From positions 224,001 to 288,000 of the forward strand of contig CAWDYC010000005.1 in NCBI GenBank assembly GCA_963806535.1: a DNA stretch of 64,000 bases, in the 5' to 3' direction. Shown piece after piece: positions 8,843 to 18,864 of this stretch (its first letter is position 1; every line of letters begins with the position of its first letter). The position numbers were made by a program, and so were the translations under genes. The notes beneath the pieces were generated by a model. It saw only the letters and a list, made by a program, of their open reading frames with translations, did not search any database and was not told the origin of the DNA. The DNA is from Candidatus Bathyarchaeota archaeon. Its GTDB lineage: Archaea > Thermoproteota > Bathyarchaeia > Bathyarchaeales > Bathycorpusculaceae.

Positions 8843-9781
8843 TTGAGCAAAAAAGAAGTTAAAACACAGGCACGCTTATCCGATAAATGCGCAGAATGCG
8901 GAAGCCAAAATTTAGTTCACGATTATGACACAGGAGAAACTGTATGCGGCGACTGTGGTTTGGTTTTATATGAGCAAATGATGGATAAAGGGCCAGAATG
9001 GCGTGCGTTTACTCAAGAAGAGAAAGCGTCGAGAAGCCGAGTTGGTGTTCCAACATCTTATTCAGTTCACGATAAAGGGTTATCTACGGCCATTAGCCAA
9101 GTTGACCGGGATGCGTTTGGAAGAAAACTACCCCTATCCACACGACTGCAGATGTGGCGTCTTAGGAAATGGCAAATACGCAGTAGAGTTCACTCATCAA
9201 TTGACCGCAATTTGGCTCAAGCTATGGCGGAACTTGACCGTCTTTCAGACAAAGTCTACATTCCTCCGCCAATCAAAGAGAAAGCCGCAGTCGTTTACCG
9301 TAAAGCCTTAGACAAGGGCCTAGTTCGGGGAAGATCAATCGCTGCAATCGCTGCTGCTGCGCTTTATGCTGCTTGCCGCGGAAGCGGAACACCTCGCACC
9401 TTACGGGAAATAGCTGAAGCCAGTCTCGTTGACAAGAAAGACGTTGCAAGATGTTATAGGCTACTGCTACGTGAGCTTGATGTTCATATGCCAATAGCTG
9501 ATCCGTTGACTTACGTATCAAAAATTGCAGAGAAAACCGGGATTTCAGGGAAAACTCAAGGTGCCGCCATCCAAATTCTCAGGGATGCAAGACGCAAACG
9601 TGCTGCCGCAGGAAAAGACCCTATGGGATTAGCCGCTGCAGCCCTCTACATTGCTTGTTTGCAAAATGGCGAGAAAAAAACACAGAAAGACATCGCAGAA
9701 GCTGCAGGCGTAACAGAAGTAACAGTGCGCAATCGCTACAAAACACTTAAAAAACAACTAAATCTTGAATTGCCTGATTAA
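8843..9781 (+). CDS. tfb: transcription initiation factor IIB
   Basis: N-terminal Zn ribbon, GPEWRAF, two cyclin repeats, TEVTVRNRY. Confidence 0.98.
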   Translation: MSKKEVKTQARLSDKCAECGSQNLVHDYDTGETVCGDCGLVLYEQMMDKGPEWRAFTQEEKASRSRVGVPTSYSVHDKGLSTAISQVDRDAFGRKLPLSTRLQMWRLRKWQIRSRVHSSIDRNLAQAMAELDRLSDKVYIPPPIKEKAAVVYRKALDKGLVRGRSIAAIAAAALYAACRGSGTPRTLREIAEASLVDKKDVARCYRLLLRELDVHMPIADPLTYVSKIAEKTGISGKTQGAAIQILRDARRKRAAAGKDPMGLAAAALYIACLQNGEKKTQKDIAEAAGVTEVTVRNRYKTLKKQLNLELPD

Positions 9782-13898: not shown

Positions 13899-13997
13899 AG
13901 ATTCTACTTAGTTTTCGTTTCTTATAACATTTGACCGCCCCTCGCCGAGATGCGAAAAGAATAATAGCTGTCAAAAGTTTCTTTCATCGGTGAATTC

Positions 13998-14474
13998 TTG
14001 TCTATTAAAGTTGGCAATAAAGCGCCAGATTTTACGCTTCCTTCACAAATGGGCGACAACGTAACTCTATCTGAATACTTCGGTAAGAAAAATATTGTTT
14101 TGTACTTTTATCCTATGGATGAGTCGCCTGGCTGCACTAAAGAAGCGTGCACATTCAGGGATAGCTACGAGGAATTAACAAGTTTAGACGCTGAAGTTCT
14201 CGGGGTTAGCGCTCAAAGTATAGCTTCGCACAAATCTTTTGCAAGCCATTATGGACTGCCGTTTTTACTTTTAAGCGATGAAGATAACAAAGTTCGCAAA
14301 CTTTACGGCGTACATTCAACAATGGGCATCATTCCAGGGAGAGTCACTTATATCATTGATAAAAAGGGCATCGTCAGGAATGTCTTCTCTTCTCAATCCC
14401 AAGCCCCCCGCCACGTTGAGGAAGCCAAAAAAACACTTCTGGACCTTCAAAAAGAACAGACGCCAACAACGTAG
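13998..14474 (+). CDS. bcp: peroxiredoxin (Bcp/PrxQ)
   Basis: YFYPMDESPGCTKEAC, RVTYIID. Confidence 0.93.
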   Translation: MSIKVGNKAPDFTLPSQMGDNVTLSEYFGKKNIVLYFYPMDESPGCTKEACTFRDSYEELTSLDAEVLGVSAQSIASHKSFASHYGLPFLLLSDEDNKVRKLYGVHSTMGIIPGRVTYIIDKKGIVRNVFSSQSQAPRHVEEAKKTLLDLQKEQTPTT

Positions 14475-14490
14475 ACTGGGGAAAAAAAGA

Positions 14491-15726
14491 TTGCTGAATC
14501 TCTATAACTCGTTAAGCCAAAAAATTGAGCCGTTCCAACCCTCCTTAAACATGCAAGTTAAAATGTACACTTGTGGCCCATCGACTTATCTGCAACCTCA
14601 CATTGGCAATTACCGAACCTTTCTGTTTGAAGACATACTCCAGCGTTATATGGAGTACTTGGGGTACAAAGTAACAAGGCTCATCACTTTAACTGATGTA
14701 GAAGACAAAGCAATAGCTCAAGCAAAAAAAGAAAACATAACGATTGAGCAATTAACTGCAAATAACGAAGCATTCTTTTTCAAAGACTTCAAGCTTCTGA
14801 GAATCAAAACACCAGATTATTCTATAAGGGCTTCTTCATCCGTAGATCAAGCAGCAAAATTAATCAGTCAACTTTTAGAGAAAGATTACGCTTACCGATA
14901 CCAGTACGAAGGAGCGGAAAACGTCTATTTCGACCCATTAAAATTCAATGGATTCGGAAAACTTTCGCATTTGGATATGACTAAATGGCCTAAAAAGAAA
15001 AGGCGCTTTCATAAAGATACTTACCCTGGAACACCTTGGAACAAGGGCGATTTTATTATCTGGGATGGTTGCAAGCAAGGAAATGTTTGCTACGAAACGT
15101 CGATAGGTAGTGGCCGGCCAGCTTGGAATATTCAAGATGCAGCAATCGTAACTAAGCATTTGGGCTTCTCAATTGATGTCGCTTGTGGCGGAATTGACAA
15201 TCTGGTTAGGCATCATGATTATGTCCTTGCGATTGTTGAAGCCGTTTCAGAAAAACAGTTCTCAAAGTATTGGCTTCACGGTGGGCATCTTTTTGTTAAT
15301 GGAAAAAAAATGTCCAAAAGCACAGGTAACGTCTATTACCCCAATGATCTTATAGTCAAAGGATTTAGTGGAGAACATTTGCGTTTCTTTCTAATTTATG
15401 GACCTTACAGGGAAAAACTAAACTTTACTATGGAAAAACTGGCTGAAACAAGTCGAAAGCTCGATTCTTTAAAAAACATGATCAAAGATTTGCAAGAGCA
15501 AGAATCGCATCGTTCTCACCCAAAAATGGATGTACTTATAAGCAGAATTGTTTCAGACTTTGAACACGCAATGAACAATAATTTATCCGTAAAATCAGCT
15601 TTCGACAAACTATACGAAACTATCTTTGACTTACATAAAAACCTTGAATCCTTAAGCAAAGCAGATGTAAAAAACATAATGGATGGTTTACACAATATTG
15701 ATTCTGTGCTTCAATGTATTTTTTAG
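14491..15726 (+). CDS. divergent cysteinyl-tRNA synthetase-like class I ligase
   Basis: MYTCGPS, HIGN, TDVEDK, KMSKS; Zn-site residues altered and C-terminal anticodon domain absent; likely TTG start at 14491. Confidence 0.85.
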   Translation: MLNLYNSLSQKIEPFQPSLNMQVKMYTCGPSTYLQPHIGNYRTFLFEDILQRYMEYLGYKVTRLITLTDVEDKAIAQAKKENITIEQLTANNEAFFFKDFKLLRIKTPDYSIRASSSVDQAAKLISQLLEKDYAYRYQYEGAENVYFDPLKFNGFGKLSHLDMTKWPKKKRRFHKDTYPGTPWNKGDFIIWDGCKQGNVCYETSIGSGRPAWNIQDAAIVTKHLGFSIDVACGGIDNLVRHHDYVLAIVEAVSEKQFSKYWLHGGHLFVNGKKMSKSTGNVYYPNDLIVKGFSGEHLRFFLIYGPYREKLNFTMEKLAETSRKLDSLKNMIKDLQEQESHRSHPKMDVLISRIVSDFEHAMNNNLSVKSAFDKLYETIFDLHKNLESLSKADVKNIMDGLHNIDSVLQCIF

Positions 15727-15738
15727 GCGCTCATTTGC

Positions 15739-15975
15739 TTAAACTAAGTCGCCTACAAATTTTACTTTCTCAAGATTTTCTTCTCTATGAGGCGCCATCT
15801 CTAACTCTTCAGTTAAATCTTTCCCAGCCTCATGCATACCCAAATGGTCTCCATCAAGCCAAAAACTACTTTCGGAAACATCATAAACTTTGCCTTTATA
15901 GGCTAAGTAGGCTGGTTTACCATTTTTTCCGTTATTTGCTTTAAGTTCTTGCATAGTTATTTTTCTTTCAGTCAA
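15739..15975 (-). CDS. cytochrome b5-like heme/steroid-binding domain protein
   Basis: AYKGKVYDVS, HxAGKDLT, APH. Confidence 0.9.
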   Translation of the reverse strand: MTERKITMQELKANNGKNGKPAYLAYKGKVYDVSESSFWLDGDHLGMHEAGKDLTEELEMAPHREENLEKVKFVGDLV

Positions 15976-16065: not shown

Positions 16066-16383
16066 TTAAAAGTGGGTAACGGCACCTGTTTTATGAACTA
16101 TAGCATTAAAAATTAGATTTAAAGTGTTGAAGTTCGATTGGTTTGAATTGTTCTGGCCGAAGTTTACATGAAAGAATACAAGAAAAATTATAGCGCCGAT
16201 AATTACCGCAGAGATTACAACAGCAGCTATGACGATGCCGACTAAAAAAAGCGGGTCATTTCTAGCAGGTTTCATTGTTGCCGCAGGAACTGGAGGCACA
16301 GAAGTGACAACCGGAGTTCCGCATTTATGGCAGAACCGCGCGTTTTCTTCAAGTTTAGTTCCACAACTTCGACAGTAAGGCAA
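16066..16383 (-). CDS. zinc-ribbon domain membrane protein
   Basis: YCRSCG...FCHKCG plus one TM helix. Confidence 0.8.
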   Translation of the reverse strand: MPYCRSCGTKLEENARFCHKCGTPVVTSVPPVPAATMKPARNDPLFLVGIVIAAVVISAVIIGAIIFLVFFHVNFGQNNSNQSNFNTLNLIFNAIVHKTGAVTHF

Positions 16384-17154: not shown

Positions 17155-18864
17155 ATGATTCCTTTGCCTGAAAAAGTTTTAGTCACATCCGCTTGGCCAT
17201 ACATTAACGTCACACCGCACCTTGGCAACCTTGTCGGCTCTGTCCTATCTGCCGATGTCACAGCAAGATATTACAGGCTAAAAGGCGACGAGACATTGAT
17301 GGTTAGCGGTTCAGACACGCATGGTACACCCATCGAGGTGGAAGCGATTAAGCAAGGTATTTCGCCTAAAGAATTAACGGATCGCAACCATGCCAGAGTA
17401 GCTGAGCTTTTTCGCCGATGGGGCGCTTCCTTTGATAATTACACAAGCACCGAAAGTCCCATTCACAAAGAGTTTGTACAAAAAACCCTGTTGGAAATCG
17501 AGAAGAACGGCTACATTTTCGACAAGGAAACCCAGATGCTCTACTGCGAGCATGACCAACGCTTCTTACCAGACCGTTTTGTAGAGGGTAAATGTCCATA
17601 TTGTGGTTGCGAAAAAGCGCGCGGCGATCAATGCGACCTGTGCGGCAGGCTACTTGAACCAACAGCGCTGGTTGAGCCATACTGCGTAATATGCAAAAAT
17701 AAGCCCACAATTAAAACTACCCGACATTGGTACATTGACCTCTCAAAACTATCAGAACCGTTAACAGAATACCTAAAAAATAACCAGCAGTTACCGGTCA
17801 ACGTCAAAAACTTCAGCCTGAACTGGATTAAAGAAGGCTTAAAACCACGAGCAGTCACCCGTGACGTTGAATGGGGAATTCCTGCACCTTTCAAAGGGGC
17901 AGAGGGCAAAACCATCTACGTTTGGGTTGACGCCGTCTTAGGTTACATTTCAGCAACGATAGAGCAATCGGAACGAATGGGGCAACCCGAGTTGTGGCGT
18001 GAATTCTGGTTTAACAAGCAAGCCAAAACTCTATATTTCGTGGGCAAAGACAACATTCCCTTTCACACAATAATTCTCCCAGCGTTGCTGTTGGCTTCAA
18101 GGCAAGGCTATAATTTGCCGTGGAATGTTTCAGCAACCGAATTTCTACAGTTTAAAGGGCAAAAAGCTTCCAAAAGTCAACGTGTCGGCATCTGGATAGA
18201 CGAAGCATTAGAAATGTTCCCCGTTGATTACTGGCGCTTTTTCCTAATAGCTACAAGACCGGAAAGCAAAGACACCAACTTCACATGGAGTGCCTTCATA
18301 GATAAAATAAACGCTGACCTCAACGACACCTTCGGCAATTTCATCCACCGCACTCTGTCATTCATAAACAGCAAATTTGATGGACAAATTCCAGCACCAA
18401 CCAAACTTGAAAAAGACGATGAGGCAATACTGCAAGCGGTGAAAGAAAAGGTTAACCAAGCTGCTAAAGAAATCGAAGATTCATGGCTGCAATCCGCCGC
18501 CAACACACTTATCGGTATAAGCCGAATCGGCAACCAATACCTCAATGACAAAGAGCCATGGAACCTAATGAAAACCGACAAAGAAAAAGCTGGAACCATC
18601 TTCTACGTTACAGCGCAAGTTGTGAAAGCCATCGCGGTTGTATCAGCACCTTTTATCCCAGACACTGCTGAGCAGCTTTGGCAAACACTCAGCCTCCAGG
18701 GAAGTGCAGCTAAAACTAATTGGAACGAAGCCTTAGTTCCTCTTGAAGCTGGACATAAAATAGCCAATCCAAAACCACTATTTCACAAAATTGACTCTGA
18801 CGAAGCAAAACTGGAAGACCAGTTAGCTCAAATTAGGGCTAAACTTGGAAGCCAGCCGAAATAG
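17155..18864 (+). CDS. metG: methionyl-tRNA synthetase
   Basis: TSAWPYIN, HLGN, Zn knuckles, GKDNIPFH, KASKS. Confidence 0.97.
   Translation: MIPLPEKVLVTSAWPYINVTPHLGNLVGSVLSADVTARYYRLKGDETLMVSGSDTHGTPIEVEAIKQGISPKELTDRNHARVAELFRRWGASFDNYTSTESPIHKEFVQKTLLEIEKNGYIFDKETQMLYCEHDQRFLPDRFVEGKCPYCGCEKARGDQCDLCGRLLEPTALVEPYCVICKNKPTIKTTRHWYIDLSKLSEPLTEYLKNNQQLPVNVKNFSLNWIKEGLKPRAVTRDVEWGIPAPFKGAEGKTIYVWVDAVLGYISATIEQSERMGQPELWREFWFNKQAKTLYFVGKDNIPFHTIILPALLLASRQGYNLPWNVSATEFLQFKGQKASKSQRVGIWIDEALEMFPVDYWRFFLIATRPESKDTNFTWSAFIDKINADLNDTFGNFIHRTLSFINSKFDGQIPAPTKLEKDDEAILQAVKEKVNQAAKEIEDSWLQSAANTLIGISRIGNQYLNDKEPWNLMKTDKEKAGTIFYVTAQVVKAIAVVSAPFIPDTAEQLWQTLSLQGSAAKTNWNEALVPLEAGHKIANPKPLFHKIDSDEAKLEDQLAQIRAKLGSQPK

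Follow-up and report, generated by a model that had tools for sequence, protein, structure and literature searches.

The window considered here is the whole stretch of 64,000 nucleotides (nt) from Candidatus Bathyarchaeota archaeon (assembly GCA_963806535.1, contig CAWDYC010000005.1, positions 224,001 to 288,000), and its gene of interest encodes a protein of the cysteinyl-tRNA synthetase (CysRS) family located 16 nt downstream of a peroxiredoxin gene (bcp). A sequence-only reading had described the product as a CysRS paralog of about 411 residues, ending in DSVLQCIF, with intact HIGN and KMSKS signatures, a rewired zinc site and no anticodon domain. The length, the ending and the spacing to bcp were reproduced, as were both signatures, which are conserved throughout the family of proteins to which the product belongs. 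Sequence comparisons suggest that this family is distinct and accessory, descends from CysRS and has spread horizontally. The features of the gene are given below; family counts refer to the 84 members described later, and Escherichia coli CysRS numbering was counted from a HMMER alignment to 1LI5.

14491-15726, forward strand: CysRS-family paralog, 411 amino acids, TTG start, TAG stop at 15724-15726
14572-14574, forward strand: Cys28, a kept metal ligand (E. coli C28), Cys in 84 of 84 family members
14599-14610, forward strand: HIGN (the HIGH signature), residues 37-40, with H37, G39 and N40 in 84 of 84 members
14971-15069, forward strand: family-specific motif of connective peptide 1 (CP1), LDMTKWPKKKRRFHKDTYPGTPWNKGDFIIWDG, standing for the canonical x[AST]GARV...DFxLWK
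15112-15138, forward strand: GRPAWNIQD, residues 208-216 (canonical GRPGWHIEC), with W212 kept and the changes H206N, E208Q and C209D
15175-15225, forward strand: DVACGGIDNLVRHHDYV, residues 229-245 (canonical DIHxGGxDLxFPHHENE), with D236 and H241 kept and the changes P233R, N237Y and E238V
15307-15321, forward strand: KMSKS loop, residues 273-277, with K273 in 79 of 84 members, M274 in 84 and K276 in 84
15430-15723, forward strand: helical-bundle domain, residues 314-411, ending ...IDSVLQCIF, with helices at 314-407 in the structural model

The TTG at 14491 was favoured as the start over the upstream ATG of the mechanically derived open reading frame, since homologues begin MLNLYNSL. The product matches PF01406 (Pfam) with 251.2 bits and TIGR00435 (cysS) with 306.5-306.9 bits, the latter under the curated cut-off of 340 and covering profile positions 1-401 of 466. 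An AlphaFold2 (AF2) model computed from a 140-row alignment has a mean predicted local distance difference test score (pLDDT) of 95.1 and a predicted template modelling score (pTM) of 0.94, and its best match in the PDB is the CysRS 8qhp (template modelling score, TM, 0.90), with 1li5 at TM 0.84. A canonical cysS, which the sequence-only reading had proposed to look for, was found on another contig (C4) of the 2.95-Mb assembly (91.75% complete); its product has 475 amino acids, scores 505.4 bits against TIGR00435, above the cut-off, over profile positions 1-465, is about 37% identical to the window protein and also reads HIGN. The window gene is therefore a paralog and not the main Cys-tRNA route of the genome; the alternative set against the initial proposal, that it might be the only such route, is not the case. 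SepRS, to be sought at the same time, was not found in this genome, and the canonical cysS supplies the route. The genome has one tRNACys(GCA), and no selenocysteine, UCA or suppressor tRNA was found in it.

The canonical cysS product of the same genome runs about 65 residues past ...IDEVLGVIG, the point at which the paralog stops. A tblastn search found that these residues, the C-terminal anticodon-reading domain, are encoded neither downstream of the paralog nor elsewhere in the assembly except inside the canonical cysS, and a split gene was rejected on this ground. The remaining helical bundle corresponds to a domain described in the available text as a homologue of the class Ia anticodon-binding domain (ABD-CRIMVLG, AARS Online; PMC11580382). 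Thus, the paralog loses just a small C-terminal extension, while the class Ia anticodon-binding bundle stays, and the initial description of a protein without an anticodon domain holds for the former and not for the latter.

The family was collected from one genome per prokaryotic species using the peptide patterns GRP[AS]WN[IV]QD and D[VI]xCGGIDN. At least 599 stretches matched, at least 598 were confirmed by tblastn and the best 80 were inspected, all of these being at least 43% identical to the window protein. Among the best 80 of at least 598 matches, the archaeal carriers are Bathyarchaeia, Methanocellales, Methanomicrobiales and Methanomethylovorans, and the bacterial carriers are Syntrophobacteraceae, Desulfobacterales, Desulfohalobiaceae, Nitrospirota/Thermodesulfovibrionales, Spirochaetota and one Acidobacteriota genome; the carriers are all anaerobes living in sediments, peat and digesters, with methanogens, syntrophs and sulfate reducers among them. 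The family, to which at least these 80 belong, is large and spans both archaea and bacteria. One carrier, Desulfoferrobacter suflitae DRH4 (Syntrophobacteraceae), is a cultured isolate. The family set (n=84) comprises the 78 intact of the 80 loci, five metagenomic representatives and the window protein, after removal of L062 (stops) and L082 (truncated); the comparison set of full-length CysRS (n=105) comprises 104 sequences of 440-520 amino acids and that of the host itself. Family members are 401-447 amino acids long (median 411) and share a signature consisting of GRP[AS]WN[IV]QD, CGGIDNxxRHHDY, a CP1 motif of the form WP[KR]-rich...DTYPGxxWNxGDF and a length of about 410 residues ending ...VLQxxF. 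Databases (NCBI, JGI) name the members 'class I tRNA ligase family protein', 'cysteinyl-tRNA synthetase' or 'cysteine--tRNA ligase'.

In a phylogenetic tree with 55 canonical and short CysRS, the family forms one separate clade with a support of 100 in the SH-like approximate likelihood ratio test (SH-aLRT). The window protein carries every signature element and sits inside this clade; the paralog is not a recent copy of the host cysS. Within the clade archaeal and bacterial lineages are interleaved, which indicates that the family has probably moved by horizontal transfer among anaerobes. Two contigs, L056 (labelled 'Methanocella sp. MAG113') and L082 ('Nanoarchaeia archaeon'), have the gene order of the Bathyarchaeia genus of the window, with paralogs nested in that clade, and are therefore probably mis-binned.

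The distribution is accessory and patchy, even within the genus. In a set of 41 related genomes, a canonical-type match (30-38% identity) is present in 40, and a family-type match (52-87% identity) in 18 of the 24 genomes of the genus and in one of the 16 genomes of the other families of the order. An even sample of Bathyarchaeia at 80% completeness or more contains 36 carriers in 301 genomes, from seven of 109 genera. No domain fusions of the family were found, all eight longer homologues being at most 36% identical and of the type in which PALP is fused to canonical CysRS. Such proteins, of 768-779 amino acids (P0131, P0276-P0281), occur in DPANN archaea (Nanoarchaeota, Woesearchaeota) and join PALP (PF00291, cysteine-synthase-type) to a canonical CysRS. 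Plasmid or phage copies were likewise absent, every match there being at most 33% identical and a canonical cysS.

The zinc of E. coli CysRS is said, in work attributed to Newberry in 2002, to be held by C28, C209, H234 and E238. Two of these four ligands are replaced in the paralog, C209 by Asp216 and E238 by Val245, and the sequence-only reading was correct on GRPAWNIQD, DVACGG and RHHDYV. The other changes convert H206 to N213, E208 to Q215, P233 to R240 and N237 to Y244, while C28, W205 (W212), H234 (H241), Thr68 (Thr68) and Asp229 (Asp236) are unchanged. Across the family, Cys28, Thr68, Trp212, Asn213, Gln215, Asp216, His241, Asp243 and Tyr244 are present in 84 of 84 members and Arg240 in 83; position 245 is Asn in 45, Thr in 26, Ile in five, Ser in five and Val in three, and never Glu or Asp. 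In the same columns of the 105 full-length CysRS, H206, E208 and E238 are found in all 105, P233 in 100 and N237 as Asn in 87 (Tyr in none), and C209 is Cys in 100 and Asp in five. Being common to all 84 members and, at H206, E208 and E238, found in none of the 105 CysRS, the family substitutions are fixed and not due to chance.

The five full-length CysRS with Asp for the Cys209 ligand (P0178, P0246, P0249, P0254 and P0258) read GRPGWHIEDT and retain everything else, including H206, E208 and E238; two of them, P0178 and P0258, have HHECEI or HHDCEI in addition, which looks like a displacement of the Cys ligand by one helix turn. As Asp occurs at this column in five of 105 otherwise normal enzymes, it appears to be acceptable as a ligand there. 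The family site is best described as a putative three-ligand metal centre resembling that of the tRNA-independent ligase MshC, with Asp for the second Cys, ringed by the fixed Asn213, Gln215, Arg240 and Tyr244. Cysteine or a closely similar thiol amino acid most likely remains the substrate, because Cys28, His241, Trp212 and the residues predicted to contact the alpha-amine are invariant and Asp209 occurs in full-length CysRS as well; a non-Cys substrate, which had been entertained initially, is possible and not indicated.

CP1 is the second region that sets the family apart. Its consensus reads L-D-M-S-[KR]-W-P-K-K-K-R-R-F-[HKR]-[KR]-D-T-Y-P-G-x-R-W-N-x-G-D-F-I-L-W-H-G, in which W166, P167, R172, F173, D176, T177, Y178, G180, W183, N184 and G186 are at least 90% conserved (n=84). 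The column of the LWK lysine is Lys or Arg in 102 of 105 canonical sequences against two of 84 in the family. CP1 is also the least confident stretch of the AF2 model (pLDDT 76-87).

In comparisons with three congeners, the ratio of nonsynonymous to synonymous substitution rates (dN/dS) is 0.079-0.085 for the paralog; the canonical cysS of these genome pairs gives 0.046-0.070. dS is near saturation in the more distant of the pairs. The paralog is under purifying selection (dN/dS about 0.08), and the early view of an adenylating enzyme with a rewired metal site is supported, the adenylation machinery being intact and the metal site remodelled under selection. This value, the confident AF2 model, the conservation of the new motif in 84 members and the invariance of the predicted ATP, alpha-amine and metal residues across archaea and bacteria make it highly improbable that the family is left over from a cysS duplication and has lost catalysis or serves regulation alone. 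In favour of such a relic are the patchy distribution and the occasional broken copies. Two or three copies look broken: that of G022 is split by a stop (its methionyl-tRNA synthetase, MetRS, being intact), that of G199 carries one TGA, and the third is in G021, a poor assembly in which MetRS is fragmented as well.

The paralog is preceded in the window by the following features.

13960-13967, forward strand: putative archaeal promoter of a joint bcp-paralog transcript, read from the sequence, a TATA-like AATAATAG with GCGAAAAG just before it
13998-14474, forward strand: bcp, a 158-residue AhpC/TSA-family peroxiredoxin with a PGCTKEAC motif, stop TAG
14475-14490, forward strand: intergenic spacer between bcp and the CysRS paralog, ACTGGGGAAAAAAAGA, 16 nt

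The bcp product matches PF00578 with 132.7 bits and PF08534 with 84.7 bits. The TATA-like box lies 31-38 nt upstream of the bcp start, and the 16-nt gap before the paralog holds no comparable element; the two genes are therefore likely to form an operon here. Among 18 loci from close Bathyarchaeia relatives, 16 have bcp immediately before the paralog (the exceptions being G008 and G040), with a spacing of 9 nt (or a 4-nt overlap) in some of them (L059, L060, L037). As the whole region is collinear in these relatives, the adjacency is a single evolutionary event. The bcp neighbourhood, from which the sequence-only reading had taken a hint of a redox or low-molecular-weight thiol role, holds in the close relatives alone, bcp being a neighbour in 0 of 58 distant loci. 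The peroxiredoxin would fit a thiol or redox product, the link being lineage-specific.

Two genes on the reverse strand converge on the 3' end of the paralog and adjoin it in close relatives too: one at 15739-15975 for a 78-residue cytochrome b5-like heme-binding protein (PF00173, 41.7 bits), and one at 16066-16383 for a zinc-ribbon membrane protein. A 569-residue MetRS, identified by translation and collinearity, is encoded at 17155-18864 on the forward strand, 1.4 kb downstream of the paralog, and its closeness is kept across the genus, as is the whole region. The window is archaeal and also contains a TFIIB gene (8843-9781).

Neighbourhoods outside the close relatives were compared at 58 distant loci, of which 52 were analysable, the target not being a single open reading frame in six. 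No conserved pathway genes adjoin the paralog in these 52. The recurrent neighbours are all lineage-bound, namely CNNM/CorC at position -1 (nine loci), MatE at -1 (eight loci), a hibernation factor (HPF) with a cold-shock domain (CSD) (10 loci), a hydrolase-OsmC fusion (eight loci) and a DinB polymerase at +1 (five loci), and a conserved operon partner was rejected for this reason. Twenty other neighbours were scanned against Pfam; six had no match and the other 14 share no family. The alpha/beta hydrolase of the window has the generic fold alone in common with the bacterial hydrolase-OsmC fusion. Several of the neighbours appear to be stress-type genes, a pattern that is suggestive but weak. 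A riboswitch or T-box upstream was rejected, as 134 kb of sequence from 10 loci in which the upstream gap is long gave no Rfam match. As for co-distribution with the mercury-methylation genes hgcAB, CdhD-type matches in this genome are confined to the cluster for acetyl-CoA synthase.

Another Cys-tRNA route, cysS or SepRS, was present in nine of 10 further carrier genomes examined: three bacteria have cysS, two archaea have both cysS and SepRS, and four archaea have SepRS without a canonical cysS. The tenth, a Methanomicrobiales bin of unknown completeness (G044), showed neither. In one archaeal genome (G050, L066), which also has SepRS, the rewired paralog is accompanied by two more CysRS-type genes, a full-length one (496.7 bits) and a short one of canonical type that exceeds the cut-off (401 bits, profile 1-401).

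These genomes bear on the proposal that the protein is still a tRNACys synthetase, a back-up isoenzyme, expressed together with stress genes, whose Cys-His-Asp site would tolerate oxidants or zinc scarcity in sulfidic habitats. G044, with no other route, would accord with it, as would the full-length CysRS with Asp209, the CysRS of about 410 residues without the C-terminal domain that are annotated as the CysRS of DPANN archaea, and the stress-type neighbours in separate lineages (bcp, the OsmC fusion, hemerythrin, the hibernation factor and DinB). Zur-regulated CysRS paralogs exist in print as well; these, however, retain their zinc ligands in the available text (PMC2770081). In the family, H206, E208 and E238, which are invariant in the 105 full-length CysRS, have all been exchanged for other residues, neither the LWK lysine nor the acceptor-stem motif survives, the domain that reads the anticodon is gone, the score is under the curated cysS cut-off and the gene is patchy within the genus. 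A back-up synthetase therefore appears decidedly improbable.

The interpretation preferred here, tentatively and somewhat short of an even chance, is that the paralog is an accessory adenylating ligase with an MshC-like three-ligand site, which would attach cysteine or a near analogue to a non-tRNA acceptor that is probably anionic or carries phosphate. In its favour are the MshC-like pocket, the loss of the anticodon-reading domain and of the LWK lysine, the replaced acceptor-stem motif, the accessory and patchy spread, the co-existing Cys-tRNA route and the apparent peroxiredoxin operon in this genome. The enzyme can be expected with good confidence to bind ATP and to make an aminoacyl-adenylate still, because it keeps HIGN and KMSKS, Asp236 for binding of the ribose, and Gly29, Ser31 and Thr68 as contacts to the alpha-amine. 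With moderate confidence, the side chain would be held on the metal by Cys28, His241 and Asp216, with Trp212 packing on it, which would make the substrate cysteine or a close thiol analogue. The later steps are proposed with low confidence: the activated amino acid might pass to a nucleophile other than an anticodon-read tRNACys, and the acceptor might be bound by CP1 (WPKKKRRF-KDTYPG-RWN-GDF) together with the pair Arg240/Tyr244. By the logic of MshC, the most likely acceptor would be a small molecule or lipid head group that bears an amine and is probably phosphorylated or otherwise anionic, again a proposal of low confidence.

Several observations weigh against such a ligase. The helical bundle that is kept is the class Ia anticodon-binding homologue; neither conserved pathway genes (52 analysable loci) nor bcp (58 loci) accompany the paralog outside the close relatives; G044 showed no other Cys-tRNA route; and the Tyr and the lost Glu common to the family and MshC were seen in a single MshC sequence and may be coincidental. 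Twelve new conserved basic positions are found in the family, in CP1, the stem-contact (SC) fold and the helical bundle, and of 17 conserved basic positions of canonical CysRS 11 are kept at 90% or more, three more partly, including the Arg of GARV, and three are lost, including the LWK lysine. Continued binding of a polyanion, for instance RNA, would be expected to give this pattern. In addition, a CysRS form without the C-terminal domain, CysRS*, is reported in the available text to serve a dedicated tRNA (PMC5389517).

The family having gained conserved basic residues, an RNA acceptor is possible, and the enzyme could aminoacylate an RNA or protein acceptor with no need to read an anticodon, the polyanionic partner being held by the Lys/Arg-rich CP1 and by the basic residues gained along the tRNA-binding face. 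The acceptor could be a tRNA recognised by its acceptor stem (as in CysRS*), a modified nucleoside (as in GluQRS) or a tRNA-shaped protein (as in EpmA/PoxA, with EF-P). The net charge of CP1 is +5.9 in the family against -1.4 in canonical CysRS (+5.3 against -1.3 for residues 160-186), and that of the helical bundle -0.3 against -3.9; the bundle and the SC fold are preserved in the AF2 model. The absence of conserved metabolic neighbours, the single genome without another route and the precedents of CysRS*, the short DPANN CysRS and the truncated GluQRS (PMC9437257, in its available text) point the same way. In CysRS the 'MSGA' motif of CP1 is described as reading the first acceptor base pair, and it is altered to PTVS in CysRS* (PMC5389517); the family segment aligned with it is P-K-K-K-R, the Pro being common to all 84 members. 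The argument that the missing anticodon domain implies the absence of a tRNA, which underlay the sequence-only reading, does not follow, because CysRS* without the same domain is reported to serve a dedicated tRNACys, nor does it follow in view of the short DPANN CysRS and the gained basic residues.

Searches for an RNA partner gave the following results. The sole tRNA in the window is a tRNA-Gln, 6 kb from the paralog, and in 12 bacterial loci the only tRNA near the paralog is an unrelated tRNA-Met. None of 26 genomes (the genus and G040) yielded SepSecS (TIGR03531), and, with no tRNASec in this genome, a link to selenocysteine was rejected for this lineage. Outside the window, contig C4 carries at 66291-66365 on the reverse strand a tRNA of 74-75 nt (Rfam tRNA, 55.2 bits) with A1-U72, G73 and the anticodon GCU, which lacks the long variable arm that tRNASer has; contig C11 encodes a normal tRNASer(GCU) of 87 nt. 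A blastn search showed that this odd tRNA(GCU) is not conserved in 25 relatives, and it does not co-occur with the paralog. A dedicated tRNA was therefore rejected, none lying beside the gene in the window or in the 12 bacterial loci.

An RNA or protein acceptor is thus held to be possible but rather unlikely: no tRNA lies near the gene save the unrelated tRNA-Met, the genome has a single tRNACys and neither suppressor nor selenocysteine tRNA, no Rfam family was found in the 10 loci, the odd tRNA does not co-occur with the paralog, no link to selB or SepSecS was seen (0 of 26 genomes), the LWK lysine is lost, and the changes of the pocket are common to the tRNA-independent MshC. A more specific form, unlikely and somewhat more speculative, is that of a transferase of anaerobes derived from an aminoacyl-tRNA synthetase (aaRS), which would place Cys or a related thiol amino acid on an RNA 3' end, a modified nucleoside or a tRNA-shaped protein, with CP1 as the acceptor clamp; this would be a modification of the GluQRS or EpmA type that is not yet known.

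Few aaRS paralogs have been shown to have left translation (MshC, GluQRS, EpmA, the amino acid:carrier-protein ligases and CysRS*), and each opened new biochemistry. If the product of the ligase preferred here is a low-molecular-weight thiol, it would fill a known gap, namely what serves as redox buffer in Bathyarchaeia, in syntrophs and in many methanogens; with RNA or protein as the acceptor, the modification would be new. The database name 'cysteine--tRNA ligase' is probably wrong, and for methanogens that depend on SepRS it can lead to false reconstructions of how Cys-tRNA is made. No published description or function of the WN[IV]QD/RHHDY family was found in the full-text literature, subscription journals being largely outside the search. 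The cultured Desulfoferrobacter suflitae DRH4 makes the question directly testable.

Among known systems, canonical CysRS shares with the paralog the fold, the helical bundle, HIGN, KMSKS and the equivalents of C28, W205, H234, T68 and D229; the paralog differs in that the basic CP1 motif replaces the acceptor-stem motif, the C-terminal domain is gone and the gene is accessory beside cysS or SepRS. The short CysRS of DPANN archaea (about 405-417 amino acids, e.g. MEM3399896.1 of Micrarchaeia) have the same end point (...VLG..F) and no C-terminal domain, and branch near the family, across the midpoint root of the tree; they keep GRPGWHIEC and PHHENE, and NCBI names them cysteine--tRNA ligase. 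EpmA/PoxA is a truncated aaRS paralog that modifies EF-P. Both it and GluQRS (YadB) are aaRS cores without an anticodon domain reused as transferases, as proposed for the paralog, which is an analogy only: they come from the LysRS-II and GluRS families, respectively, and have no sequence relation to the paralog beyond class. CysRS* of Desulfobacterales is, like the paralog, a second cysS copy without the anticodon-binding domain and with an altered acceptor-pair motif in CP1, and is described by Mukai et al. (2017; PMC5389517, in its available text) as serving a dedicated tRNACys. It is coupled to selB*/selC*, with a tRNACys of the UCA type, and reads PTVS, whereas the family motif is P-K-K-K-R, PTVS occurs in 0 of 84 members and genetic coupling of the paralog to a selB*/selC*-type tRNA was not seen.

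MshC is the closest parallel for the pocket. Like the paralog, it has about 410 residues, lacks the C-terminal domain and keeps KMSKS, and its structures (3c8z, 8hfm) match the paralog model with TM 0.82-0.84 (3c8z 0.82). MshC of Mycobacterium smegmatis reads PHHEYS where the family reads RHHDY[NTV], both without the Glu ligand and both with Tyr at the N237 column. In the available text on MshC, the zinc ligands are three residues, C43, C231 and H256, plus the thiol of the substrate, and the alpha-amine is bound by T46, T83 and the carbonyl of G44 (PMC9736012). The paralog equivalents of the alpha-amine contacts are Ser31, Thr68 and Gly29, all conserved, and the metal triad would be Cys28/Asp216/His241 against Cys/Cys/His in MshC. 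Unlike the paralog, MshC reads GRPGWHVEC, with the His, the Glu and the second Cys intact, and it retains a basic residue at the LWK column, which the family does not; the CP1 regions of the two do not align, and MshC hosts are Actinomycetota while those of the family are anaerobic archaea and bacteria. An MshC orthologue was rejected, the score against TIGR03447 being 174.8 bits with a cut-off of 485.1, so that of the initial likeness to MshC the truncation, the lost Glu and the Tyr stand and orthology does not. The interpretation advanced by the sequence-only reading is thus partly supported and its observation confirmed, and the family would be an aaRS paralog diverted from standard tRNA charging.

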